Source: Candidatus Hodarchaeum mangrovi (GTDB lineage: Archaea; Asgardarchaeota; Heimdallarchaeia; Hodarchaeales; Hodarchaeaceae). Taken from it: 64,000 nt of DNA. Position 1 is the stretch's first letter; every line of letters starts with the position of its first letter. The notes under the pieces were generated by a model that saw nothing but the letters and a program-made list of their open reading frames with translations, searched no databases and was not told the origin of the DNA. The stretch spans positions 2,004 to 66,003 of the forward strand of contig JAEOUE010000108.1 in NCBI GenBank assembly GCA_016839515.1, in the 5' to 3' direction. Positions 20,005-52,380 of this stretch are shown one piece after another. Both the position numbers and the translations under genes were made by a program.

Positions 20005-20637
20005 TTGAACTCGTTCACAGACCAAGATGATCAATCTATACCTGAATACCTGTCTCAGCTAGAAGAAACTGTTTTAGAAGAACTATCAGTAAGAGAACGG
20101 AATTATTCTTTCCGGTTTAATGGTTTAAGAAGATTGTTAAATGATGTCCACCAGCAGAAATTAGCACGAGCACTGGAAAGATTACAGGAAGACAATCTTA
20201 TTGAGCGTTATCCAGATGGGGGTTATGGTTTAGATAGTAAGTATTATGATCGGATAAAAGAAAAATTTGGTAAGCAATCTCTGAATAACGGAAATTTCGG
20301 ATTTGACCTAAATATTCACCAAAATTATACCGCTATCTCAACAGGAACGGATTTTCCAGTTCAAATTATTATTAACAAGCTTACAGGAAAATATTTTGGG
20401 CAATATAGATTCATTGGCCATTATTTCTCAAATGGAAAAGGACGATTGGAATGGATTCACGCTGAGAATCAATCTAAAATCCTTATAACCCAGATTTCAC
20501 CTCGTAAGATTGAAATTTCAGCATCAAACGTATCTAAATTAGCTATTGAAAGATTTCTAAGAATCATCCAACAAATTTTGTACGAGTTACAGATAATTGC
20601 TCAATTCTCTGGAGAACATCAATCTCAAGCAAATTAA
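20005..20637 (+). CDS. Winged-helix DNA-binding-like protein with uncharacterised C-terminal domain
   Basis: FRFNGLRRLLNDVHQQKLARALERLQEDNLIERYPDGGYGL resembles a wHTH. TTG start. Confidence 0.5.
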   Translation: MNSFTDQDDQSIPEYLSQLEETVLEELSVRERNYSFRFNGLRRLLNDVHQQKLARALERLQEDNLIERYPDGGYGLDSKYYDRIKEKFGKQSLNNGNFGFDLNIHQNYTAISTGTDFPVQIIINKLTGKYFGQYRFIGHYFSNGKGRLEWIHAENQSKILITQISPRKIEISASNVSKLAIERFLRIIQQILYELQIIAQFSGEHQSQAN

Positions 20638-20926: not shown

Positions 20927-23893
20927 GTGAGTGAGTCACAACAATCTATTGAAGAATTTTTTGCGATATTACGGGCAATTGAAAGTAAATGGCAATCCCG
21001 CTGGGCTGAAAAAGATATTTTTAAAGGAGTAAAAAAACACGACAAAGAGAAATACTTTGTAACAATACCTTATCCATATGCCTCGGGACCACTCCATGTT
21101 GGTCACGCTCGTACTTATACAATCGGGGATGTATTTACCCGATTCAAACGAATCCAAGGTTTCAACACCTTATGGCCAATGGCTTTTCATATAACTGGAA
21201 CTCCAGTACTTTCTGTATCAGCAAAAATAGAAGCAAACGATGAAGAGACCATAGAATTATACAAGGATTACATAAGAATATACGAATCTGATGAAGGGAT
21301 AGTTAACCAAATTATACATTCCTTTATAAACCCCCTCAATGTTGCGATGTATTTTGCGGATAAATTAATCAATGATTTTAAGGCAATGGGTTATTCATTA
21401 GACATACATAGACAATTCACCACTGGTGACCCTGAGTATAATAAATTTATTGAATGGCAATATAATCATTTAATTAAGAAAAATTACATTGTCCAAGGCG
21501 AATATCCCATTTTATGGTGCTTAAGAGAGCAAAACGCTGTTGGAGAAGATGATATACGTGATGCAGATGTAAATAAAGTTGAAGTTCAAGAGTTTGTTGC
21601 TTTAAAATTTAAATTTGAAGAGGATTTTCTAGTAGCAGGTACTTTTCGTCCCGAAACAATATATGGAGCTACAAATATATGGTTACATCCTACAACCACA
21701 TACTGTAGAGTTAAGGTAGATGAGAAGGAAACATGGATTATTTCAAAAGAAGCTGTTGAAAAATTAACTCACCAAAATCATAAAACGAAAGTATTAGAAG
21801 AATTTTTGGGTTCTACATTAATTGGGAAAAATGCTTTTGCCCCTCGGGTTCCTGATAGACCTTTACCTATTCTGCCTGCCACCTTTGTTGATCCTGACCA
21901 TGCAACAGGGGTAGTTTATTCAGTTCCTGCTCATGCTCCTTATGATTATATTGCTTTACGAGATTTACAACAAGACTCTAGTGCTCTAAAACCTTTTAAT
22001 GGATTAGAAAAAATAGTAAAATCGATTAAACCTATTGCGCTAATTGCAATTGAATCTTATGGAGAATTCCCAGCCGTTGAAATCGTAGAAAAAATGGGAA
22101 TAATGAATCAAGCTGATATTAAAAAATTAGAAGCTGCAACTCAAGAAATTTATTCGACAGAATTCTATAATGGCGTTATGATGGACTTCACTGATGAATT
22201 TGCTGGTTTAAAAGTAGAAATAGCTAAAGATAAAGTAACAGAAGTTTTGAAGGAAGAAGGTTACGCCACTTCCTTTTATGAAGTATCAAGAAAAGCAACT
22301 TCTAGATCAGGAGGAAAAATAATCGTTGCAGTTTTACCTGATCAATATTTTTTGAACTACGGTGATATAAAATGGAAATCACTGGCTAAAAAAGCTTTGG
22401 ATCAAATGAAAATAGTTCCTGAGAAGTACAGAAGATCATTCGAGAGTACATTTGAGTGGTTAGATAGACGTCCATGTGTTCGGAAAAGAGGCTTAGGTAC
22501 TGAATTTCCATTAACAAAAGGCCAAGGTTGGATTATTGAGTCATTAAGTGACAGTGTTATTTATATGGCCTTTTATTTGGTAATTCCCCACATAAAAAAA
22601 CATAATATCAGTCCTGAACAATTGATTCCTGAGGTATTTGACTATATTTTCTTAAATAGAGGTGCTTTATCTAATATAGCTAAAAAAAGTAGAATTGAGG
22701 AGCAAATTCTGAAAGAAATGCAAGATGATTTCAGATATTGGTATCCCAATGACCTACGCCACACAGCAATTGCTCACATAGGTAATCATTTGTCATTTAC
22801 TATTTTTCATCACGTTGCAATATTCCCAGAGAAATATTGGCCTAAAATCTTCTCTTTAAATGAACTCCTAATAAGAGAAGGAGAGAAAATGTCTAAATCA
22901 GCTGGAAATGTAATTCCAATAGCTCATCTGCCAAAAAGGTATTCTGTGGATGTAACTCGCTTGTACTTAGTTTCAGCTGGAGCTTCAGATACAGTTTTAA
23001 ATTGGACAGAAGAAGGAATAAGTACATTAGTATCACGAATCAAAAAATTTTGGACCTTAGCGAATGAGATACTAGATAATACATCGAAAATTACATTTGA
23101 TATGTCTAAGGCTTCTTTTATGACACGTTCATTTATTTCAGCATGTAATCATCACTTAAAAGAGGGTATGAAACAATTAGAATTCTTTGATGGACGTGGA
23201 TATGTCTCTCACACATTCCATTTAATGTTAAAAGAAGTGGAATTTTATCTTAAGGCTTCAATAGGATTACATGAGGCCGAAAGAAATTCTGCCTTAAGAT
23301 CAATTATTGATAATTGGATTCTATTGTTATCTCCTGTAATTCCGCACCTAAGTGAGGAGTTGAATGAAAAACTAGGAAATAAAGAATTTTGTTCTCTTAG
23401 AGTAATAGAATCAATAGAAATTTCAGATGAAGCGCCTATTCTAAGTCATCAAATCTCATTCGTGAGCAATCTGATTGAAGATATCAAATCAATTATAGAA
23501 CTTAAACGCAGTTCTCCTAATAAAATCTTTATCTATATAGCCTCACAATGGAAACATGATTTATATAACCAGATAGGGTCTATGGTAGATGAAGGAGCTT
23601 TAGATATAGGTAAAATAATGAGTAATTTAAGAAAAGATAAAAAATATGCTTCCAGAATGTCTGAAATAGCAAAAGATTTGAAAATGACTAAAGGCGATGT
23701 AAAAGTATTCAGACAACAGGTAATTGGGTCTGAAAAGGAAATGGAAGTTATTAGAGGATATTCTAAATATCTTGAGGCATTATTTGAGTCCCCAATTTAT
23801 GTTTATCTTTCTGATGATGAGAAAGTCGATGACTTCCACAATAAAGCTATCCGAGCTCAACCCTTAAAACCTGCAATCTATATCGAGTTTTAA
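20927..23893 (+). CDS. leuS: Leucyl-tRNA synthetase (archaeal/eukaryotic type)
   Basis: HIGH motif PLHVGHARTY, KMSKS motif EKMSKSAGN, CP1 editing insertion. 988 aa. GTG start after GGTGA. Confidence 0.95.
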   Translation: MSESQQSIEEFFAILRAIESKWQSRWAEKDIFKGVKKHDKEKYFVTIPYPYASGPLHVGHARTYTIGDVFTRFKRIQGFNTLWPMAFHITGTPVLSVSAKIEANDEETIELYKDYIRIYESDEGIVNQIIHSFINPLNVAMYFADKLINDFKAMGYSLDIHRQFTTGDPEYNKFIEWQYNHLIKKNYIVQGEYPILWCLREQNAVGEDDIRDADVNKVEVQEFVALKFKFEEDFLVAGTFRPETIYGATNIWLHPTTTYCRVKVDEKETWIISKEAVEKLTHQNHKTKVLEEFLGSTLIGKNAFAPRVPDRPLPILPATFVDPDHATGVVYSVPAHAPYDYIALRDLQQDSSALKPFNGLEKIVKSIKPIALIAIESYGEFPAVEIVEKMGIMNQADIKKLEAATQEIYSTEFYNGVMMDFTDEFAGLKVEIAKDKVTEVLKEEGYATSFYEVSRKATSRSGGKIIVAVLPDQYFLNYGDIKWKSLAKKALDQMKIVPEKYRRSFESTFEWLDRRPCVRKRGLGTEFPLTKGQGWIIESLSDSVIYMAFYLVIPHIKKHNISPEQLIPEVFDYIFLNRGALSNIAKKSRIEEQILKEMQDDFRYWYPNDLRHTAIAHIGNHLSFTIFHHVAIFPEKYWPKIFSLNELLIREGEKMSKSAGNVIPIAHLPKRYSVDVTRLYLVSAGASDTVLNWTEEGISTLVSRIKKFWTLANEILDNTSKITFDMSKASFMTRSFISACNHHLKEGMKQLEFFDGRGYVSHTFHLMLKEVEFYLKASIGLHEAERNSALRSIIDNWILLLSPVIPHLSEELNEKLGNKEFCSLRVIESIEISDEAPILSHQISFVSNLIEDIKSIIELKRSSPNKIFIYIASQWKHDLYNQIGSMVDEGALDIGKIMSNLRKDKKYASRMSEIAKDLKMTKGDVKVFRQQVIGSEKEMEVIRGYSKYLEALFESPIYVYLSDDEKVDDFHNKAIRAQPLKPAIYIEF

Positions 23894-28890: not shown

Positions 28891-31521
28891 ATGGAGATAA
28901 ATTATCAGATGAAACGATTTTATCGTTGTTTGATCATATTATTTTTTATCCTGGCCTTATTAAAAATTAATAATGTTCCTCTAACCACTGCTAATTCCCC
29001 CACATCGGTTTTATTTATGACAACTTCCAATGATGGAAAATTAAAGGAACGATTCAGTTTAGATCCAAAATATTTTATCGAAACACGGAATACATTACCT
29101 TCTAACTTAGAAATTTTTGATGTTATAATTTTAATTGATTTTATTTTTAATAGCTCTATTTTAACATCATATGAGGGAGGATTGATCATTTTTACTGGAC
29201 CAACCTTAGCAAATAATGGTACTTGCTTAGTAGAATTAGGATTAGCATCAACACCAATTGGGACAATAATTAATAATCCAGCTCTCCCAGTTGTGAAAAA
29301 AGGTGCTCTTTCCCATCCTTTATTAAAACAAATACAGTGGAATTCAATTCCAGTAATCACAAATTATTCTAATATAGCTCTACTTGGAACAATTTTGGTA
29401 GAAACCTCTTCAGATAGTATAAATCCAAATCTACCTTTAATCAGCTCAAATAATAATGATAAACATCTCATGGTTAATATTTGGCCAAATGAACAGCTGA
29501 ATTCTGAGTTTGTTCAATGGCCCTATTTTAATTATTTTCTATTTCTCCTTTTAGAGATCTCTACAAATCAATCTCCAATGAATTATGCTGATTGGCCCTA
29601 TTCTCCAGTTCCCCATCTTCCAGAATCTATCTTTCTTGGGCTCTCTGTTCTTCTTATAACTATTGTCACTGTTGGAGGGTATCAGTATGCTAAGAACTAT
29701 GCTCGTAAAAACCCAATAAATGAAAGAGATCTCCAAGAATTAGCCAAACAAATCGAAAAAGACCAAGACTGGGAAGATATAGGTATGCATCGGCCATTGG
29801 GAGGTTTTATGGTTCAATTCTTCATTGGAATTCTTATACTGTTACCAAATGTTATAATGAGTGCCTTGGTTTTTCCCTTACTAATTTTACCTTCTCCCCA
29901 AGCAGCAGGATTTTATGATTTTACTCTCCACTTTTTTGAGGCCCTCTGGTTACTATTTGATTTAGGAACTAGTACGGCATTAGTGAAGTTTTTTGCAGAA
30001 CATCGCGTTAAAAGGCCTCAATATTCAATACGTTTTATTCAGATTTTCATTTGGTTTCAATTAGTTTCAGGTATTATTCAGTTATTCTTGATCTCATTCC
30101 TTGGGTCTATTATTTTCCCCAGAACTTTTCTTGCACACATGTCTTGGGTCTTTGTTACTCATGCATTTTTTCAGTGGCCAGCATTCTTTATTGTATTCAT
30201 ACTAATTTTTCAAGGCATGAATCGATTAGACTATTATCAGATTTTAAATCTTTTATTATATGGAGTATTTAACATTACAATTCAATACTTAGTTATAATT
30301 ATCTTCCGATTAGTATTAGGTCCTAATATCATTTATGGTGACTCTTTGGCAGGAGCAATTGGTTACAGTATGGGGAATTACGTTGTAATGTGGACTGGAT
30401 TTCTAGTGGGGTTATGTTTCTTCAAACGCTTAGGTTTTTCCGTTAAAAGTATATTCCGAGTAGATTTCACTTTTGAAGAGATAAAAATAACTCTTAAATT
30501 TGGATCAAAATGGGCAATAGGAAATTTATTACCTCCCTTAGGCTGGTTTTGGCAAGTATTTTTACTATCAGCATTTTTACCAAATTATACAGAACAACAA
30601 GGCTTTTTTTCAATAGCTTGGTCTTTTGCATTAATTGTTATGCTAGTAGGTTTATTTGCTCAGTCCATCCTAGGCGGAGTTTCTGAATCATTTCATGCAG
30701 GGAGAAAAAAACTTACACAATACTATGCTGCTAGTTCTTTAAAGTGGTCCGCGTTTTTTGATTTTTTCTTTGTTGCAGCATTACTAACAATTGGACCTAA
30801 ATTTATTTTAGGTGGAGCAGGTTCTGAATGGATTGGGGCAGCTATTTTAATTCCTTGGTTACTCATATTTCATGGATTTGGATATTTATCTTGGCTTGGA
30901 GATTGGATGTTTGCAGGATCAGATCGTCCTGGATGGGCAGCAATTTCTTGGATAATAGAACAAGGAATCAGAGGTGTTTTATTGCTTCTCTTTATTCCAA
31001 ATTGGACTTTATTTAGTAAAACCTTTGGTAGTCCAATGATTGCTGTAATGTTTGCTTATATTCCAGCCTTAATAATTAAAGATATATTTATGTGGTGGGG
31101 AATACGTCGTTCAGAATTCTTCCGTTTTCCATGGCGTGATGTTGTTTATCAAGGTTTTATCGCTCCGATATTAAGTGGAATACTAATTTTTTTACTTTTA
31201 GATTCCTTATTTAACATTATATGGCAAGGTGATATTCTAACTTCTGTAATAATTCTTCTTATCGGAATCATTGGAGGAATTTATCTATTTAGCTTCATAT
31301 ATGGATTATTAGGAGGGTTTGATGATAATTCACTCACTGAATTCCACCGTGCAGCAAAAATGGCTAAAGGACTCCGTTTTCCAGCAATCTTACTTTATAA
31401 AACATCAAGAGTAGGGGCGAGAGTCTCTCCATTACACAATAGATTCCCAATTACGATTTTCGAAAGTGCCATGCAGGAAGCACATAGCTTAACAAAAGAG
31501 AAAGAAGAGCTTGTAATTTAA
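28891..31521 (+). CDS. Large polytopic membrane protein, Wzx/MOP-flippase-like core with ~230-aa N-terminal extracytoplasmic domain
   Basis: 876 aa. Signal/TM at the N-terminus and 12 or more hydrophobic spans with polysaccharide-biosynthesis-protein-like composition. No catalytic motif recognised. Confidence 0.35.
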   Translation: MEINYQMKRFYRCLIILFFILALLKINNVPLTTANSPTSVLFMTTSNDGKLKERFSLDPKYFIETRNTLPSNLEIFDVIILIDFIFNSSILTSYEGGLIIFTGPTLANNGTCLVELGLASTPIGTIINNPALPVVKKGALSHPLLKQIQWNSIPVITNYSNIALLGTILVETSSDSINPNLPLISSNNNDKHLMVNIWPNEQLNSEFVQWPYFNYFLFLLLEISTNQSPMNYADWPYSPVPHLPESIFLGLSVLLITIVTVGGYQYAKNYARKNPINERDLQELAKQIEKDQDWEDIGMHRPLGGFMVQFFIGILILLPNVIMSALVFPLLILPSPQAAGFYDFTLHFFEALWLLFDLGTSTALVKFFAEHRVKRPQYSIRFIQIFIWFQLVSGIIQLFLISFLGSIIFPRTFLAHMSWVFVTHAFFQWPAFFIVFILIFQGMNRLDYYQILNLLLYGVFNITIQYLVIIIFRLVLGPNIIYGDSLAGAIGYSMGNYVVMWTGFLVGLCFFKRLGFSVKSIFRVDFTFEEIKITLKFGSKWAIGNLLPPLGWFWQVFLLSAFLPNYTEQQGFFSIAWSFALIVMLVGLFAQSILGGVSESFHAGRKKLTQYYAASSLKWSAFFDFFFVAALLTIGPKFILGGAGSEWIGAAILIPWLLIFHGFGYLSWLGDWMFAGSDRPGWAAISWIIEQGIRGVLLLLFIPNWTLFSKTFGSPMIAVMFAYIPALIIKDIFMWWGIRRSEFFRFPWRDVVYQGFIAPILSGILIFLLLDSLFNIIWQGDILTSVIILLIGIIGGIYLFSFIYGLLGGFDDNSLTEFHRAAKMAKGLRFPAILLYKTSRVGARVSPLHNRFPITIFESAMQEAHSLTKEKEELVI

Positions 31522-41957: not shown

Positions 41958-42173
41958 ATGGGAAAAGTAAGAACTGCTTCTGTTAAAATAATTTCCCGAG
42001 AAATTATTAAGGAGTATGGTGCAAAATTATCACCAGATTCTTTCGAGCATAATAAAGATATTGTCTCTAAAGTTGCTATAATCCATTCAAAATCCTTTAG
42101 GAATAGAATAGCAGGCTATGTCACTCATCAATTGAAATTAAAGAAGATAAGGGAAGAAGGGCTAGAAATCTAA
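41958..42173 (+). CDS. rps17e: Ribosomal protein S17e
   Basis: MGKVRTASVKIISREIIKEY...SKSFRNRIAGYVTHQLK matches the S17e signature. Confidence 0.9.
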   Translation: MGKVRTASVKIISREIIKEYGAKLSPDSFEHNKDIVSKVAIIHSKSFRNRIAGYVTHQLKLKKIREEGLEI

Positions 42174-42252: not shown

Positions 42253-42552
42253 TTATGGGGAATATATTAATTCCTGTTCATCATCGAATGAATTACATGT
42301 TAGTAATAATTTGATAATTGTTTTCATCTGCGGTTTTTTAATAACCCAATTGATTATTATCTGGTTCTTATTTATCTCTGAAATCTCAATCATATCAGAT
42401 TGAGGTGGAATAAAGATTACAGGAGGATTTGCTTGAAGTTTTATTTTGATATCAAAAAGGGGAGGACTATTAGATGGTTGTCCAAGATCCCATGATATCA
42501 ACAGTCTATCATCGAAGAACTGAAAAATTCTCGGAGACTGAAGAAAAGACAA
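42253..42552 (-). CDS. Beta-rich 99-aa protein of unknown function, co-transcribed with the EAP30-like gene
   Basis: TTG start 6 nt after GAGGT lying inside the end of the upstream gene. About seven predicted beta-strands and proline-rich loops (SPPLF, NPPVIFIPPQ). Confidence 0.55.
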   Translation of the reverse strand: MSFLQSPRIFQFFDDRLLISWDLGQPSNSPPLFDIKIKLQANPPVIFIPPQSDMIEISEINKNQIIINWVIKKPQMKTIIKLLLTCNSFDDEQELIYSP

Positions 42553-42554
42553 TA

Positions 42555-43232
42555 TTAGACCTCTTTAAAATAGTCTGGTAGGTATAATTTTTTCTCTTTA
42601 TGATCAATAATACATAAATTATATGATTCTAAAATTTTGAGTAAGTTGTGGATCTTATCCCTTGACCAAATAGTGCTAGAATAAATTTTTTCAAAGGAAA
42701 CCTCACCATTGGGAGATATATGAACTGAAATAATCTTTAAAAATTCTTGAATATCTTCTGAAAGGGTTAAAGGTTCAAATAAAAGGCCATTTGGAGTTTT
42801 TATAACGATTTTTTCGTCGACCAGTAGTTTTAAAGATTTTTCTATGTCTTGAATGTCACAATGCCACCATGGTCTATGTTTATGAAAAGAATGAGCTATT
42901 TCTGAAAGATGAGTAGCTCTTAAATAAACTCGTTGATAGGATAAACCAAAAACAATCAATTCAGAAGCTAGACGAGAGAAAAAGTCTTCTTTTCCTCGGA
43001 ATGTGGGTCTTTTAAATAAAGATGAAGGTAATATTGATTCAGGTAAATTTGAATGTTGTTTTAATGATAAAAGATAATTAGAAAAATCCTCTGGGAGAAA
43101 GCGAGGGCTTGATATTTTTTCAACTCCTTTCGCTAAGGTTGATTTAGCTTCTTGATTTACTTCATCCTCTATTCGTTTAAGCTTCTTTCCTAATTCTTTG
43201 AAATGGTTTTCTCTATCTTTATTGTTTGGGAT
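42555..43232 (-). CDS. Tandem winged-helix protein, EAP30/Vps22(SNF8)-like (ESCRT-II family candidate); 5' end without canonical start codon
   Basis: The ORF track begins at internal TTG 42959, but the frame is open to 43235. The extended product has an N-terminal helix plus two wH units that align block-wise (from memory) with SNF8. GGAGG sits 8 nt before ATC 43232. Confidence 0.45.
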   Translation of the reverse strand: MPNNKDRENHFKELGKKLKRIEDEVNQEAKSTLAKGVEKISSPRFLPEDFSNYLLSLKQHSNLPESILPSSLFKRPTFRGKEDFFSRLASELIVFGLSYQRVYLRATHLSEIAHSFHKHRPWWHCDIQDIEKSLKLLVDEKIVIKTPNGLLFEPLTLSEDIQEFLKIISVHISPNGEVSFEKIYSSTIWSRDKIHNLLKILESYNLCIIDHKEKKLYLPDYFKEV

Positions 43233-43263
43233 GTTTTATTCCTCCATGTGTTACATCTTGAAG

Positions 43264-43275
43264 CTTTATAAAAAA
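43264..43275 (-). promoter_or_regulatory. TATA-box-like element upstream of the EAP30-like gene
   Basis: Minus strand reads TTTTTTATAAAG, 16 nt before ATG 43247 and about 30 nt before ATC 43232. Confidence 0.4.
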
Positions 43276-43389
43276 CTTTTACTTTGAGGAGATTTTATTG
43301 GTATTAATCGGATCTGATCAACAAAAAATTTGGGGATTATAATCAAAATCAATAACAAAAATGAGGATGCTTTTTTAGCGTTTAAAAAT

Positions 43390-43719
43390 TTATTTATTTG
43401 CCATGAGTGCTTCTTTACGTCCTTCCCATGGTTTTTCTAACCAATCGAGAGGAATCGTTTGAGATTTTCCATTTGGTAGGGTACGAAGAATAAGGATTGG
43501 AAGCACATCTCTTCTCAATTCATCTTCTGCAATTAATAATGGATCTCCCTGTTCCTCCTCAATACTTATTGATTTTTCCTCTGTAGCAGAAAGATCACCT
43601 AAGACTGGTGCTCCCATTGAGATCTGAAGTGCTCTTGCGCCTAAAATTCGTGCATATTCGAATCTAGTGAGCATTTTAGGCCCAATATCAATTTTATGAA
43701 TTTCCTTCCGTTTCACCAA
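43390..43719 (-). CDS. rpoK: DNA-directed RNA polymerase subunit K (Rpo6/Rpb6 homologue)
   Basis: [24 protein letters not shown]...[26 protein letters not shown], the Rpb6/RpoK signature, with an acidic insertion. Confidence 0.9.
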
Positions 43720-43939: not shown

Positions 43940-45568
43940 CTAATCCATATCGTCCATACCTTCTCCGCCTGGTCCACCAGGAGGTCCAGCACCTGGTCCA
44001 CCGCCAGCTTTTGCGGCAATGATGTCATCAATTCTTAATATCATCTGAGCATTTTCACTAGCTGCTGTTATGGCATGAGTTTTAACTCGTAAGGGTTCTA
44101 TGACATCGATCATTTCGCGTACTTTACCTTTGAAAACATCGATTCCAGTAGCTGAACTTCCACTTTCATGAGCACTTCGGAGTGCTACAATTATATCGAT
44201 TGGATCCAGACCAGCGTTTTCTGCTAAAGTTCTTGGAATAACTTCTAAAGCTTTTGCAAAAGCTTGGACAGCTAATTGTTCGCGACCAACAAGAGACTCA
44301 GAAAATTTCATCAGCTTTCGACTGACATACGCTTCAGGAGCGCCACCACCTGGTACAACTTTTTTATCCTCTAGAACGTTTCGAACAACGCAAATTGCAT
44401 CATGTATTGACCGTTCTGCTTCATCAACAACTAATTCAGTTCCACCCCGAATTAATATAGTTACTGATTTAGCTAAAGGACAATCTTCCACAAAAACCAT
44501 GTCATCATCACCAACAGAAGTCTCATATACTTTTCCTGCGGTTCCTAAATCATCTGATGAAAGGTCTTGTATGTTATCAACTATTTTTGCACCAGTTGCT
44601 TTAGCCAATTTTTCCATATCTGATTTTTTGACACGGCGTATACCCATTATGCCCTTCTTTGCTAGTAAATGTTGAGCAATATCTTCAATCCCTTTTTGGG
44701 CAATTACAACATTAGCACCTGATTCGATTACTTTATCTACCATTTTTTTGATCATATCTGATTCACGATCGAGAAATTCTTGGATTTTTGATGGATCAGT
44801 GATACTGAGTTCAGAATCGAATTCTGTTTTTGAAATTTCGAAAGCTTCAGCGATAAGGGCAATTTTTGGATCCTTTAGCTTTTTAGGCATTCCTGGATGA
44901 ACAACTTCTTTATCTAAGACAATTCCCCTTACCATTCTTGTTGATGTTATATCTTCGCCCTCTTTTTTCTCAACCTTAATATCTTCAATGTCAATTTTTC
45001 TTTTACCGCTATCAATACTTTTAACAGCGTCGATTACGATCTTTGATAGATGATCACTGTGAGAAGCTACAATTTTGGATCCCATTGACGTCTGTACTAC
45101 CATTTTGAGGAGTTTTTCATCATCAACAGCTACTTCATGAGCTATCTCATTTAAATATTCTAATGCTTTTTCAGTAGCAACACGGTACCCTTCAACTATT
45201 AGAGTAGGATGGATTTTGTCACTACTAATCAATTCAGCTGCTTGTTGTAAAAATTCACCTGCAAGAATGACGACAGTGGTTGTTCCATCACCAACTTCCT
45301 GATCTTGAATTTTACTTAATTCAACCATCATTTTTCCAATTGGATGTTGAATGTCAATTTCTTTAAGAATAGTGGCACCATCATTTGTTATAACCACATC
45401 ACCAAAGTTATCAACGAGCATTTTATCCATGCCTTTTGGTCCTAAAGCTGATCGAATAGCTTCAGAAATAACTCTAGCTGCAGCAATATTACTACTTGTT
45501 GCATCTTTACCAGTTGTACGTTGAGTATCTTCTTTTAATATAAAAATTGGGGTTCCTTGTAATGTCAT
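43940..45568 (-). CDS. ths: Thermosome (group II chaperonin) subunit
   Basis: [59 protein letters not shown] box. 12-nt gap to the upstream paralogue. Confidence 0.95.
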
Positions 45569-45580
45569 TTTTATCTCCTC

Positions 45581-47242
<1,662 letters not shown>

Positions 47243-48393: not shown

Positions 48394-48639
48394 TCAATGA
48401 GAATTTTTTAACTTATTTCTGATTTGTACAATTCGTGATTCAGTTTCATTATCATAAAATTTACAGGTGATGAAGGAAAACCCTCTGGGATCAGGAAATA
48501 AATGTAAATCGAGTTTATCAGTCTTTATGATTGAATATTCATCCTGTTCTGCGAATGGGGTTTTAAATTCTTTGCTGACTTCTTTTAAAAAGGTTTTTCC
48601 AAGATCCCAAGTATTTAATTTAAATTTAATACGTTTTAT
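48394..48639 (-). CDS. Candidate small protein (81 codons) with no canonical start codon
   Basis: Own translation: (I)KRIKFKLNTWDLGKTFLKEVSKEFKTPFAEQDEYSIIKTDKLDLHLFPDPRGFSFITCKFYDNETESRIVQIRNKLKNSH-TGA. ATA 48639-48637 overlaps the TAA of the upstream gene (ATAA) and lies 8 nt after GGAGG. No ATG/GTG/TTG in frame. Confidence 0.2.
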   Translation of the reverse strand: MKRIKFKLNTWDLGKTFLKEVSKEFKTPFAEQDEYSIIKTDKLDLHLFPDPRGFSFITCKFYDNETESRIVQIRNKLKNSH

Positions 48640-50822
48640 TTGAGATTCCTCCTTAAATAGGCTAGAATAAGTACGGAACTGAAAATAATTGGAAAATATA
48701 ATGGAGTTTCATTCGTTGTATCATTTTTAGTTTTTAAGGGAATAAGTGGAACACTCCCTTTAGGATCAGGTGAACCGAATATGAAATCAGATGCTTTATT
48801 TGTATCAATATGAAGCATTTTCCTTAGTATAGCTTGACCTGATCCAGGAATGCTTAATTGTTCAGAACCATCAGGAGCGGGAATTCCATATGCTACAACA
48901 TCATAGAATTTACCTAAAGGATCAATTAATTGGACATAATCTCCACCAGTATTAACTAGAGTAAATCCTAGCTGAAAATCTCCCACATTTCCATAAGCAT
49001 TGTTATATCCTGCAAGACTCTTCGCAATAATTATAGAACTGTAAGCTGGAATAGTATAATTATATGGAAAAGTCAGTAGAATATTATTATCACCAATTTT
49101 CCAATTTTCAATAAGTAGATCGAATGGGAAGCTATTTGTAAGCTCTATATATTCTCCTTCTGCATCTGAGACATCTGTAGGATCAGGTAATAATTCTGTT
49201 ATTAAAAACCTCCAATTATCACTTGAATGATAATTAGCGATGTTTACTGTAACTTTATCAAAGAATACATTGGAATTATTACTAGCTTTGACTTCAAAGG
49301 ACTGGATACCATTTTCCAACGCTGTTGTATCATATTGAATTGAAAAAGAGCTTTCAGAGGATGATACCTCAACCCATTCTGATGTTCCCCATCGATATGA
49401 TAAAGTGGGATTTTCTAAACCAATAGATTGAGCATTCAGTGAAACTATACCAGATATTACTTCTGCATGAGTAAAACTTGTTTGAAAAACTCCTATTGGT
49501 AAATCCCAAGCCGATCCAACAGCTATATCGGATTCCCAGACAGATTTGAAGAAATCTGCAATATCAGGGGCATTATGGACTGCAATACCCATGTCCCGAT
49601 TAGCCTCTGTTGAAGTGTATTCATTTTTTTGTGGTGTGACACTACGAGGACTCCAATTTCCAGAATAAACAAATACATGTTTTCCATCAATAATCCAATA
49701 CTTGGCATGATAATAACCATTCACTTTATTCGCATCGGTTGTAGAATTATAAACAGGGATTAAATTATTAACTAAGGATATAGCTGCATTTTTGGTGTCA
49801 ATATTCTCTGATTCTCCGAAACGTCTATTAGAAATTAAAACCTGAATATCAATGTTTGGATTGTTTTTCTTCAAGTCAATCAATGTATTATTAAAATCTG
49901 GACGACTAATAGTATACATAGAAACATATATTGATTCCTTAGCGCTTAATAAATATTTAAAAATTGTTTCATCTGCACTATCAGGATTTGTAAAAAGCGT
50001 CATGTTATAAATTCCTGTAAAATTAGCTTTTGGAATGTTTGTATGACTCGGATAGCTTGATGCAATGAAATTTTCTTTATCATCAGGTTTTCCAACAAAT
50101 TTTCCTTTCGATTTTATAGGAATAGTATTTGAAGGATCAACTCCATCATTCCAGTCACGATTAAATATAGTTGTAAAGTAATTTGCTATATTAATATTTA
50201 TGATGGCGAAACCTGCTTCTCTATTCTCGGTAAAAGCATTTTCTCCAAAATTGATTGAGGATAGAAGAGTAACTTTATTGTCAACAACAATCAGCTTATT
50301 ATGGGTGCTTGATAACCAATCGTTATCAGGGTTATTATCTTGACTTCCCATCCATCTAATATCAATTCCTAAATTATTGAAATAGCTTGTAATATCATCT
50401 GAATCCGAATCTTCACGGACTTGAACTCTAATATTAATACTTCGATTATGTGCAGCCACTAAAGCACGAACGAGCGGATTAGAATCAGATATCCAATCTC
50501 CTGAATCAAATTTAGTAATGTACTGATTCTGAAGAATAATACTAGTGTTAGCACGATTAATCCATCCCACATGAATATCTAATGCATTATCAGGCGTAAA
50601 CATGGGGCTTATTGTCATTATTTCTTTGATGTTTGTTGCATTAAAAGATGGGATATAAGCTTGACTTATTAAAGGTTCTTTTACCATCAAAGGAATATTA
50701 TTATTATTTATAGAATAATGTGAAGTCGGTAGTGATGACAATACGCAACTAATCAGAGTGATTATAAAGAGATAAACATACACACGATTTAGCATCCTAA
50801 ACACCATAAATCTAAACAGCAT
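48636..50822 (-). CDS. Secreted, C-terminally anchored phospholipase-D-superfamily protein (two HKD motifs) with lamin-tail domain
   Basis: Signal-like N-terminus. HNKLIVVDNKVTLLSSINFGENA and HAKYWIIDGKHVFVYSGNWS (HxK..D motifs). LTD-like LITELLPDPTDVSDAEGEYIELTNSFPFDLLIENWKIGD. Terminal TM plus RRNLK. Confidence 0.75.
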   Translation of the reverse strand: MLFRFMVFRMLNRVYVYLFIITLISCVLSSLPTSHYSINNNNIPLMVKEPLISQAYIPSFNATNIKEIMTISPMFTPDNALDIHVGWINRANTSIILQNQYITKFDSGDWISDSNPLVRALVAAHNRSINIRVQVREDSDSDDITSYFNNLGIDIRWMGSQDNNPDNDWLSSTHNKLIVVDNKVTLLSSINFGENAFTENREAGFAIININIANYFTTIFNRDWNDGVDPSNTIPIKSKGKFVGKPDDKENFIASSYPSHTNIPKANFTGIYNMTLFTNPDSADETIFKYLLSAKESIYVSMYTISRPDFNNTLIDLKKNNPNIDIQVLISNRRFGESENIDTKNAAISLVNNLIPVYNSTTDANKVNGYYHAKYWIIDGKHVFVYSGNWSPRSVTPQKNEYTSTEANRDMGIAVHNAPDIADFFKSVWESDIAVGSAWDLPIGVFQTSFTHAEVISGIVSLNAQSIGLENPTLSYRWGTSEWVEVSSSESSFSIQYDTTALENGIQSFEVKASNNSNVFFDKVTVNIANYHSSDNWRFLITELLPDPTDVSDAEGEYIELTNSFPFDLLIENWKIGDNNILLTFPYNYTIPAYSSIIIAKSLAGYNNAYGNVGDFQLGFTLVNTGGDYVQLIDPLGKFYDVVAYGIPAPDGSEQLSIPGSGQAILRKMLHIDTNKASDFIFGSPDPKGSVPLIPLKTKNDTTNETPLYFPIIFSSVLILAYLRRNLK

Positions 50823-51024: not shown

Positions 51025-52380
51025 ATGGAATCCTTATTATTAAAAAATGGTCTAATTGTAACAATGAATCGAAACAATGAGGTGATAGAAAGGGGGAACT
51101 TATATATTGAGGATGGAAAAATTCTTGAAATTGGGGAAAAAACACAAAAAAAGGCGGATATCGAATTAGATTGTAATTATCAGATAATTTTTCCTGGATT
51201 TATCTGTGCTCATACACATCTATATTCTGCCTTACTAAGAGGAGCACCAATGAAAATCACCCCTCCTTCTGATTTTACCCAAAATTTACAGCGTATTTGG
51301 TGGACTATGGATGAGGCATTGTCTCTTGAAGATGCTTATACATCAACTCTCTACGCTGTACATGAATTAGCCCTAAATGGAGTAACTGCATATCTGGATA
51401 CTTATTCTGGTCCAAATTCAATTGAGGGGTCATTAGACCGAATTTCAAAAGCAACACAAGAAGTTGGTTCTCGGGGTGTTATATGTTTTGAAGCTACAGA
51501 ACGCAGAAGTCCAGAGGAAGGAATTAGAGGACTTGAAGAAAATCGACGCTTTATTCAACAGAATGATCCTCAAAAGACTCTGATTCATGGAATCTATTGT
51601 TTACATGCATCCTTTACTGTTTCAGATGATTTAATTCATAAAACAAATGAATATGCTGAACAAACTGATTCTTTTAAAACAATCCATACATCGGAGGGCA
51701 TGGCGGATCTACATCACAATTTGGAGAAATATGGTAAAAGAACGGTTGAACGGTTGTTCGATGAAGAATTTCTTGGTCCACGAACTGCATTAGCTCACGC
51801 AGTTCATATTAATCAGCATGAAATTGATTTAATTGCTCAAACCAATTCAAATATTGCACACAATCCCAAAAGTAATGAATTAAATGCAGTTGGAATTGCT
51901 CAAATCCCTGAAATGATTCAGAAGGGAATAAATATCGGCGTAGGGAATGATGGGTTTATTTATGATGCAATAGAAAACATGCGAACAGCATATCTTATGC
52001 ATAAGCTGAATCATCTTAATCCAAGTCAACTTCCTACTCCCTTACAAGTCACTCAAATGATAACTATAAATGCAGCTCAAGCAATAGGACTTAAAGATCA
52101 TATTGGTTCAATAGAAGTCGGGAAAGCAGCTGATTTTGTAATATTCGATTGTACTGCATTACCTACACCCATTCATAGGGAAAATGTTTTTGGACATCTA
52201 GTATACGGTTCGTTTTCACGGAGAGACATTAAACGAGTAATTGTAAATGGAAAAACTATTGTGAAGAATGGGATTCACACATCATTAGATGCTACTCAAA
52301 TTAGTCAACAGTCTAAGGAATCAGCTTTAAAACTTTGGGAGCGATTAGATCTAACACCTAGAATTGGTAAACGTTTTTAA
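51025..52380 (+). CDS. ssnA: Amidohydrolase-superfamily aminohydrolase, SsnA/chlorohydrolase-like
   Basis: FICAHTHLYSALLRG (HxH), IWWTMDEAL, HTSEG, AHAVH, GNDG motifs. Confidence 0.65.
   Translation: MESLLLKNGLIVTMNRNNEVIERGNLYIEDGKILEIGEKTQKKADIELDCNYQIIFPGFICAHTHLYSALLRGAPMKITPPSDFTQNLQRIWWTMDEALSLEDAYTSTLYAVHELALNGVTAYLDTYSGPNSIEGSLDRISKATQEVGSRGVICFEATERRSPEEGIRGLEENRRFIQQNDPQKTLIHGIYCLHASFTVSDDLIHKTNEYAEQTDSFKTIHTSEGMADLHHNLEKYGKRTVERLFDEEFLGPRTALAHAVHINQHEIDLIAQTNSNIAHNPKSNELNAVGIAQIPEMIQKGINIGVGNDGFIYDAIENMRTAYLMHKLNHLNPSQLPTPLQVTQMITINAAQAIGLKDHIGSIEVGKAADFVIFDCTALPTPIHRENVFGHLVYGSFSRRDIKRVIVNGKTIVKNGIHTSLDATQISQQSKESALKLWERLDLTPRIGKRF

Follow-up and report, generated by a model that had tools for sequence, protein, structure and literature searches.

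Experimental work treats the endosomal sorting complex ESCRT-II of Asgard archaea as one Vps22 homodimer plus Vps25, and Hatano et al. (2022) described one Vps22/36-like gene per Asgard genome, homodimerising and linked to Vps25, ESCRT-III and Vps4. Heimdallarchaeia carry in addition a second, widely conserved EAP30 paralogue together with a small partner. In the tabulation of Makarova et al. (2024, mBio; PMC10936438, supplement 9), Heimdall LC_3 (Hodarchaeota) has two genes of asCOG cog.002769, 'EAP30/Vps22 family protein'. The first (As_003-p_00309) sits in a Vps22-Vps20-Vps24-Vps4-Vps25 cluster, and the second (As_003-p_01982; 222 amino acids (aa)) is preceded by LeuS and SsnA and followed by an unnamed 106-aa open reading frame (ORF), Rpo6, RPS17A, a Zn-ribbon protein and an Fe-S protein (PMC10936438). 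Makarova et al. tabulate this second copy, but the paralogue, its partner ORF and its start are undiscussed there; Hatano et al. did not consider an rpoK-linked paralogue, and we found no discussion of one in the text of the literature that was searched. Here we analyse what appears to be the corresponding gene (42555..43232, reverse strand) in a 64,000-nucleotide (nt) stretch of DNA, referred to below as the window (contig JAEOUE010000108.1, positions 2,004 to 66,003), from Candidatus Hodarchaeum mangrovi, an Asgard archaeon of the order Hodarchaeales. New here are a conserved translation start, in which a Shine–Dalgarno (SD) sequence is followed by a putative AUH initiator (AUU, AUC or AUA), and the partner ORF, which was previously unrecognised. 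The assignment to the EAP30 family made in a first-pass annotation of the sequence is correct but already present in the asCOGs.

Two described systems bear on such a start. Bacterial infC, the gene for IF3, has long kept an AUU initiator behind a good SD (PMC4705826), and in the strong-SD model mRNA of Pyrococcus abyssi aEF1A the sequence GGAGG occupies positions -13 to -9 relative to the start codon (PMC6237735).

An open frame longer than its annotation

The full coding sequence comprises 225 codons and a TAA stop (42557-42555). Gene calls begin it at an internal TTG (42957..42959), which yields a 134-aa product (42555..42959) that clusters with the RefSeq entries of the species (WP_455140530.1 and WP_455463036.1). 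The first-pass annotation had pointed to this start and to some 91 further open codons upstream of it without ATG, GTG or TTG, and both observations are borne out by the ORF listing and by translation back to an in-frame TAA at 43238-43236: the 92 codons from AAC 43235 to TTG 42959 (91 from ATC 43232) contain none of the three triplets. At ~32 % G+C about 7.6 % of random codons are stops, and the chance of 91 open codons is, by an arithmetic estimate, ~7e-4. TTG 42959 corresponds to residue 93 of our structural model, within helix 1 of the first of two winged-helix (WH) domains, and the 30 nt upstream of it contain nothing that resembles an SD. Most likely it is not the true start.

Comparison with other genomes leads to the same view. 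A search of 5.8 billion proteins returned 42 relatives, labelled Hodarchaeales, Hodarchaeota, Heimdallarchaeota or Promethearchaeota, nearly all of which are 225-231 aa long and cover 97-100 % of the extended product, so that orthologues do not uniformly start at the position of TTG 42959. Their alignment has 31 invariant columns over its whole length, 15 of them upstream of TTG 42959 (including P48, Y54, L56, L58, S67, L69, P70, F74, P77, G81, R88, L89, S91 and E92), which upholds the N-terminal extension proposed earlier. Gene calls in several other lineages are shortened to 205-212 aa or carry five spurious N-terminal residues. For the window species the database annotation is confined to the 134-aa fragment because the gene appears to start at a non-AUG codon. 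We consider it very likely that the gene is an intact, full-length EAP30 paralogue.

Family and fold of the product

Membership of the 225-aa product in the EAP30/Vps22 family, and hence homology to ESCRT-II Vps22/SNF8, is supported by profile comparisons and by a predicted structure. PF04157 (EAP30) is matched by 40 of 41 orthologues, with a best E of 6.6e-8 and in some cases a precomputed match. A HMMER scan of 1.84 billion representatives with the family profile returned only 55 clusters, grading into proteins that pass the EAP30 threshold; four that it retrieves (P0062, P0066, P0091 and P0099) score 47-144 bits on PF04157. The family profile aligned with P0091 in hhalign over 143 columns that span both WH domains (95.9 % probability, E 5.4e-9). 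A profile search of the PDB found human SNF8 at E 0.12 in the register expected, and the block-by-block alignment with SNF8 given in the first-pass annotation was reproduced by HMMER (DFYYELGVQIIEVC..., GYVTVSEIKASLKWETERARQVLEHLL...), WH1 and WH2 aligning to WH1 and WH2 of SNF8 in HMMER and hhalign alike. The top entry of the PDB profile search, the repeat protein Crov588, was rejected as spurious, having been reached via a low-complexity 'LP..L' repeat, and a PDB search with the single window sequence gave nothing relevant (best, uteroglobin fusions at E 0.4). P0094, which may be a canonical Vps22, has a metallo-beta-lactamase gene as its only neighbour on a short contig.

An AlphaFold (AF2) model built on an alignment of 41 orthologues (mean predicted local distance difference test score (pLDDT) 72) has the topology foreseen in the first-pass annotation, an N-terminal helix followed by two WH units. 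The N-terminal helical region (residues 5-61; 43053..43223, reverse strand) is modelled at low to medium pLDDT (40-65) with helices at 5-40 and 49-61, and it is the counterpart of the helical N-terminus of Vps22. WH domain 1 (residues 82-153; 42777..42992, reverse strand; pLDDT 76-91) has helices at 82-104, 110-120 and 128-140 and strands at 144-147 and 150-153, and WH domain 2 (residues 160-218; 42582..42758, reverse strand; pLDDT 80-90) has helices at 160-170, 181-187 and 192-204 and strands at 178-180, 209-211 and 216-218; both are modelled in the canonical order H1-(S1)-H2-H3-S2-S3. The best PDB matches of the model in Foldseek were SNF8 (3cuq_A, E 4.8e-5; 2zme_A), yeast Vps22 (1u5t_A) and Vps36 (1u5t_B), with probabilities of 0.97-1.00 and full-length alignments of 227-233 columns. 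Other tandem-WH proteins (SelB, Roco COR, MCM, Vps25) ranked after these, so the search did not return only generic MarR/Lrp matches. The link that had been drawn between the EAP30 family and Asgard archaea is likewise in keeping with the host.

Canonical Asgard Vps22 (LC_3 As_003-p_00309; HeimAB125 Vps22, the subject of Hatano et al.) shares with the window protein the EAP30 family, the asCOG, a length of ~230-240 aa and the layout of N-terminal helices plus two winged helices. It is, however, encoded with Vps20, Vps24, Vps4, Vps25 and Vps28, and the rpoK-linked paralogue never is in the loci examined. Eukaryotic Vps22/SNF8 and Vps36 (3CUQ, 2ZME, 1U5T) are the best structural and profile matches, with both WH domains in register and a helix before WH1, but at ~16-21 % identity and a whole-chain TM-score of 0.29. 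The paralogue lacks the GLUE/PH domain that Vps36 has, its putative partner is a separate immunoglobulin (Ig)-like protein and not Vps25, and its gene stands persistently beside rpoK and rps17e. The protein has the parts with which Vps22 builds the ESCRT-II stalk and holds Vps25.

A conserved SD sequence and ATH codon at the 5' end

Drawing on GTDB genomes, JGI metagenomes and assemblies, we compared the 5' regions of orthologues, of which 29 are distinct, with positions numbered from the first base of the codon aligned with ATC 43232. In the window, ATG GAG GAA TAA (43247-43236) stands directly upstream of AAC ATC. The GGAGG within it (43241..43245, reverse strand; -13 to -9) is followed, after an 8-nt spacer AATAAAAC (43233..43240, reverse strand), by the proposed initiation codon ATC (AUC; 43230..43232, reverse strand). 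The spacer holds the in-frame TAA 43238-43236, and the first G of GGAGG, 43245, is both the predicted transcription start and the third base of the ATG (43247-43245). These motifs, and a TATA-like TTTTTTATAAAG at 43275-43264, lie where the first-pass annotation had them.

Across the 29 regions GAGG (-12 to -9) is invariant and a G precedes it at -13 in 26. The spacer (-8 to -1) is exactly 8 nt in every region, whereas little of its sequence is conserved (11-22 of 29 per column). It is followed by ATT in 19 regions, ATC in six, ATA in two and ATG in two, the last both from one lineage (L025/L026/L034) whose 'codon 1' is GTA. This 'codon 1' (-15 to -13), the position at which gene callers start most orthologues, drifts: ATG occurs there 14 times, TTG five, TCG four, GTA twice, and GTG, CTG, ATT and ACG once each. 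Eight regions combine a non-start triplet at 'codon 1' (TCG, ACG, ATT or GTA) with a spacer free of in-frame stops. In six of these the next canonical in-frame start comes only at +13 to +20, inside a conserved helix; in the two GTA regions codon 6 is itself ATG, and in the window the next canonical start is 91 codons on. The window species has an in-frame TAA at codon 4, as does one other lineage, L022 (Hodarchaeota YT2_004), whose 'codon 1' is CTG. Moreover, 'Glu-2' is GAG in 29 of 29 regions, when Glu codons elsewhere in the family are 31 % GAG and 69 % GAA. LC_3-type relatives have ATG or GTG at the start, and the window's clade has ATH.

An invariant GAGG, a fixed spacer, ATH and a drifting 'codon 1' are therefore the signature of an SD plus start codon and not of Met-Glu-X coding, and ATG-GAG-GAA is better read as a transcription-start region plus SD than as a designed three-codon upstream ORF (uORF). 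With GGAGG at -13 to -9 the SD lies within the 5-10 nt upstream of the start that define one, if the host's anti-SD is taken to be the usual archaeal one, to which the SD motifs of window genes also point. The codon itself is outside the canonical set of AUG, GUG and UUG, being ATC here, ATH in 27 of 29 regions and ATG in one lineage. Nor does the pattern suit leaderless translation, as ATG stands at 'codon 1' in only 14 regions, a non-start triplet stands there in nine, and an invariant SD follows closely. A thermosome ATG in the window likewise has GGAGG and an 8-nt spacer ahead of it. Compared with the P. abyssi mRNA, the SD core and the 8-nt spacing to the P-site codon are identical, but the codon is AUG there, AUC here and AUU or AUA in relatives (PMC6237735).

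An SD-plus-AUH start accounts at once for the in-frame TAA, for the drift of the 'first codon' and for an annotation of only 134 aa. Initiation at AUC, one of three mechanisms offered in the first-pass annotation, has the strongest comparative support from the 29 regions. The non-canonical 5' end that it described is indeed present; it is not peculiar to one genome and is conserved in the whole orthologous group.

Predicted promoter and proposed expression

A predicted promoter (43268..43281, reverse strand) consists of a TATA element TTTTTTAT at 43275-43268 (-43 to -36) and an A-rich stretch resembling a B recognition element (BRE) at 43281-43276. The TATA starts at -43 or -42 in all loci, with T at -43 to -40 in 26-28 of the 29 and A at -48 to -46 in 24-27, and the same TATA-SD-start layout recurs at ATG genes of the window (orf51025, TATA at -42; orf24096, TATA at -39; AGGAG ~13 nt before ATG). 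The centre of an archaeal TATA box usually lies ~26-27 nt upstream of the transcription start site (TSS). A TATA centre ~26.5 nt upstream, together with a pyrimidine-purine step at -14/-13 in 28 of 29 regions, would place the TSS at about -13, that is, at G 43245.

We favour, with moderate confidence, an explanation in which the locus is an intact two-gene operon with an SD-led AUC start that encodes a second EAP30 paralogue and its partner. The BRE/TATA promoter would drive transcription from about G 43245, giving a 13-nt leader that opens with the SD GGAGG (proposed mRNA 5' end 5'-GGAGGAAUAAAACAUC...; 5'-GGAGGAAUAAAACAUCCCAAAC...). Pairing of SD and anti-SD would position the small subunit, and initiator tRNA would start at the near-cognate AUC 43232. 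ATG 43247 would be mostly or wholly outside the mRNA, its AU being untranscribed, and the TAA 43238-43236 would be harmless in the spacer of the 5' untranslated region (UTR) because the mRNA would start at ~43245 and initiation would occur at AUC 43232. Gene 2 (42552..42253) would be translationally coupled to gene 1. Since aIF1 discriminates against AUU, a conserved AUH start would be expected to give low, stringency-dependent output; kept clade-wide, the weak start may hold the protein low and let start-codon stringency (aIF1) influence its synthesis, in the way that AUU does for infC in bacteria. The likeness to infC, a conserved AUH initiator behind a good SD, would by analogy imply translation that responds to start-codon fidelity factors. 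The two differ in that infC belongs to another domain of life with IF3 in place of aIF1, and the EAP30-like product, not being an initiation factor, offers no obvious feedback loop; the codon use is, moreover, deduced from conservation.

Just upstream of the TATA, the block AAAATCTCCTCAAAGTAAAAG (43276-43300, reverse strand) is identical in the window and in the relative of 84 % identity, in an intergenic region that has otherwise diverged between the two. More distant orthologues (among L001-L039) have a CTTCCT/ACTCC motif ~20 nt upstream of the TATA. From its conservation, the block may be a binding site for a regulator.

Alternative explanations of the in-frame stop

In the nearest relative (84 % identity) ATG GAG GAA AAT AAT ATC takes the place of the window's ATG GAG GAA TAA AAC ATC, and a single difference on the base-pair scale in a sequence derived from a metagenome-assembled genome (MAG) might be an artefact of assembly or sequencing at codon 4. 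TAA against AAT, however, is two substitutions, and the TAA version is repeated exactly in six more assemblies (four independent ones from Logan, of different runs, one NCBI MAG and one further run), which makes seven. The six differ from the window at a few other sites, where they carry independent single-nucleotide polymorphisms. Assembly error is therefore excluded, and we give an artefact practically no credence. The TAA might instead mark a recent loss of function, as a nonsense mutation in an ATG-start gene that left a young pseudogene or a locus making no more than the 134-aa C-terminal part that begins at TTG 42959. Such an event would accord with the gene calls and the RefSeq entries, with the lack of a stop at codon 4 in the nearest relative, and with the fact that non-AUG starts are not established in archaea. 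Yet the 90-codon extension is, on the pattern of substitutions, under strong purifying selection. Parsimony against the two nearest relatives assigns 12 synonymous and 7 non-synonymous changes to the window branch (57 and 213 sites), against a neutral expectation of ~4 and ~15. The ratio of non-synonymous to synonymous rates (dN/dS) in the extension is ~0.16-0.19, and pairwise it is 0.19 versus 0.22 in the rest of the gene. Polymorphisms within the species are only synonymous in the extension (GCG/GCA, TCA/TCT), a second lesion is absent from the 91 codons, and the TAA is fixed in the seven assemblies. The fragment, besides, would begin inside helix 1 of WH1 without an SD, and other lineages that also lack a start at 'codon 1' keep the full frame. 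On this evidence we regard loss of function as improbable.

Readthrough or reassignment of UAA after a start at ATG 43247, an option named in the first-pass annotation, draws on the continuity of the frame but for that single TAA. Against it, TAA is the terminator of the EAP30-like gene, of the PLD-like gene and of many others in the window; lineages without any start at 'codon 1' are left unexplained; and a stop in only two of 29 lineages means that a conserved readthrough signal does not exist. tRNA and Rfam scans of the window were empty, revealing neither a tRNA gene (suppressor or other) nor a recoding element, so that a riboswitch, recoding element or suppressor tRNA cannot be invoked, and we judge recoding to be very improbable indeed. 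The explanation that we rank second, though we think it unlikely, is a leaderless or near-leaderless AUG in which the TAA arose at codon 4, so that ribosomes would make Met-Glu-Glu, stop, and restart 3 nt on at AUC while held by GGAGG. Termination and reinitiation of this kind would suit the 20 of 29 regions with ATG, TTG or GTG at 'codon 1' and the arrangement TAA-NNC-ATC of both stop lineages (the window and L022), with the stop 3 nt ahead of ATH. A second non-canonical gene in the window, described below, has an ATA overlapping an upstream TAA (ATAA), a classic coupling arrangement. With a TSS at A 43247 the TATA centre would lie at about -24.5, a distance that remains plausible. However, the eight regions with TCG, ACG, ATT or GTA at 'codon 1' and a stop-free spacer have no uORF to terminate, and ATH and GAGG are still invariant in them. 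The 'codon 1' of L022 is CTG, a leaderless AUG does not account for the conservation of GAG-G as a nucleotide sequence in 29 of 29 regions, and with the best-fitting TSS the AUG loses its AU.

Several points nevertheless weigh against an SD-led AUC start on a second EAP30 gene. The 20 canonical triplets at 'codon 1' are more than drift alone obviously predicts, and many species may therefore really start there. The TSS position comes from promoter geometry and is uncertain by 2-3 nt, which leaves room for a leaderless AUG, started at A 43247, in species that have one. The invariant Ile might, in principle, reflect a constraint on the protein. Reviews of archaeal initiation name only AUG, GUG and UUG starts (PMC7531240), and in vitro, in a Sulfolobus system, aIF1 discriminates against AUU (PMC4705826). 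As regards the protein, the window sequence alone scores only 18.9 bits (E 0.0013) against PF04157, with residues 80-211 matching profile positions 83-218, and does not reach the gathering cutoff of 26.8. The global TM-score in Foldseek is low (0.27-0.30), because the domain arrangement and the N-terminal helices are poorly modelled. ESCRT genes were not found near the paralogue among the window ORFs scanned, and the model of the partner described below was built from an alignment of 3 close sequences only.

Gene neighbourhood and paralogue status

As the first-pass annotation had stated, the gene lies between rpoK (Rpo6/Rpb6; 43390..43719, reverse strand; PF01192, 30.7 bits), its upstream neighbour and conserved syntenic partner, and rps17e (41958..42173, forward strand; PF00833, 68 bits), the downstream neighbour, which is convergent here. 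The rpoK ORF opens at TTG 43719 (109 aa), and its orthologues are called at 94-110 aa, or at 144 aa in a distant relative. The set of rpoK, EAP30-like gene, ~100-aa ORF and rps17e is kept from the window to Heimdall LC_3-type relatives. The context of the LC_3 second copy is also found in the distant relatives L040 and L041 (~26 % identity) and, with rpoK shifted upstream of the gene, in the window, L001, L004 and L042. LeuS and an SsnA-like amidohydrolase (20927-23893 and 51025-52380 in the window), which adjoin the EAP30 paralogue directly in LC_3-type genomes and L040/L041, are here 8-20 kb from it. The neighbourhood has been broken up while its core of EAP30-like gene, partner, rpoK and rps17e stayed together.

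Shared synteny and profile matches point to orthology with the second cog.002769 copy of LC_3. The two have the same family and length class (222 vs 225 aa) and share the unnamed ~100-aa ORF, Rpo6/RpoK, S17e, the Zn-ribbon protein and a CxxCxxCC Fe-S protein; LeuS and SsnA are also close by. Unlike the LC_3 copy, the window's clade has rpoK upstream of the gene and an ATH start (ATG or GTG in LC_3-type genomes). The gene is the rpoK-linked second paralogue and not the ESCRT-operon copy, and as its family is already catalogued it is not a new protein. Snf7/ESCRT-III, Vps4, Vps25 and Vps28 domains were absent from the 41 other window ORFs scanned, a set that takes in the Nuo operon (~4.4-15.3 kb) only at a nuoA-like ORF, and to that extent the earlier statement that the window has no Vps4, ESCRT-III or Vps25 gene holds. 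No linkage to Vps25, ESCRT-III (Vps20/Vps24) or Vps4 was seen in the 8-20 kb orthologous neighbourhoods examined.

Further cog.002769 genes outside the ESCRT cluster are listed for Heimdall AB_125 (As_001-p_00607) and LC_2 (As_002-p_02899), where they adjoin YSH1, TilS and RPS25-type genes (PMC10936438, supplement 9); EAP30 paralogues outside the operon are therefore widespread in Heimdallarchaeia.

A conserved ORF for a probable partner

A 99-aa ORF with a TTG start (42253..42552, reverse strand) begins 2 nt past the stop of the EAP30-like gene, with an SD-like GAGG at 42563-42560, 7 nt upstream of the TTG. All loci examined, including those of relatives ~26 % identical, have an ORF of 98-112 aa in this position, and 14 residues are invariant among 19 sequences. 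Pfam and PDB sequence searches with the ORF gave no match. Its AF2 model is all-beta, with seven strands and a pLDDT of 74, and has weak matches in Foldseek, of a kind generic for Ig-like sandwiches, at E 3e-3 or worse (gamma-adaptin-ear (GAE), BBSome GAE domains and FN3), so that the product is probably an all-beta protein with an Ig-like fold. From the tight and conserved linkage, which appears to be translationally coupled, it is most likely a binding partner of the EAP30 paralogue.

Our best guess for the role of the pair, held with low confidence, is an ESCRT-II-like winged-helix adaptor or scaffold with an Ig-like partner, acting outside the core ESCRT operon. A bolder proposal, which we regard as doubtful, is that conserved, eukaryote-like near-cognate initiation ties output to aIF1-type stringency and so controls the EAP30 paralogue and its co-translated Ig-like partner as an extra ESCRT-II-like module. 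This might be a Vps36-like second stalk subunit with its membrane or cargo domain in trans, or an adaptor tied to its surroundings of transcription and translation genes, which would recall the association of eukaryotic EAP30 with ELL.

The second paralogue bears on when a state resembling the Vps22/Vps36 duplication arose, and with its partner it offers a concrete protein pair to test. Surveys of eukaryotic signature proteins that apply a Pfam threshold will miss or miscount it. If true, an AUH start that persists through order-level divergence, its SD and spacer being invariant, would offer studies of start-codon fidelity in Asgard archaea a clean natural substrate.

A second putative non-canonical start and other genes of the window

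A second putative example of a non-AUG start lies 5 kb from the EAP30 paralogue. An 81-codon ORF runs from ATA 48639 to a TGA ending at 48394 (reverse strand; region 48394-48652) without an in-frame ATG, GTG or TTG; AAGGAGG precedes its ATA by 8 nt, and the ATA shares bases with the TAA that ends the PLD-like gene upstream (ATAA). In L001 (590-852; 81 % identity) TAG immediately precedes the ATA and a canonical start is again absent, and in L042 (4740-4992; 49 % identity) the codon is GTA and the first ATG comes at +17. No Pfam family matches the ORF, which gene finders either miss or truncate. From its sequence it would be a precedent in the same genome for an SD plus non-AUG start. A programmed frameshift from the PLD-like ORF into the 81-codon ORF was considered and rejected, as the junctions CUC AAA UAA, CUU AGA UAA and AAG G UAA share no slippery site. 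A scan for SD plus ATH starts found only the EAP30-like gene and the 81-codon ORF in the window, and the fetched loci added only the L001 orthologue of the latter. As further convincing cases were not found, the signal is rare and gene-specific and not a general loosening of start selection.

Elsewhere in the window, a NuoA-like gene (PF00507; 4404-4835, forward strand) is called from TTG 4449, and GGTGA-9nt-ATA occurs 15 codons upstream in frame, just past a stop; this ATA is not needed, because residue 43 of the long form is the first that belongs to the Pfam domain. Two ORFs of 876 aa (28891-31521) and 210 aa (20005-20637), both on the forward strand, have no Pfam match at E <= 1e-4. The PLD-like gene upstream of the 81-codon ORF encodes a 728-aa protein (48636-50822, reverse strand) with two PLD-like domains and a Lamin Tail Domain (PF00932, 36 bits), and it adjoins a histone-fold gene in the relatives L001 and L042. 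Finally, two thermosome (Cpn60/TCP-1) paralogues lie in tandem (43940-45568 and 45581-47242, reverse strand), the upstream one having a GGM-repeat tail whose last codons run into the GGAGG-8nt-ATG start of the downstream one.

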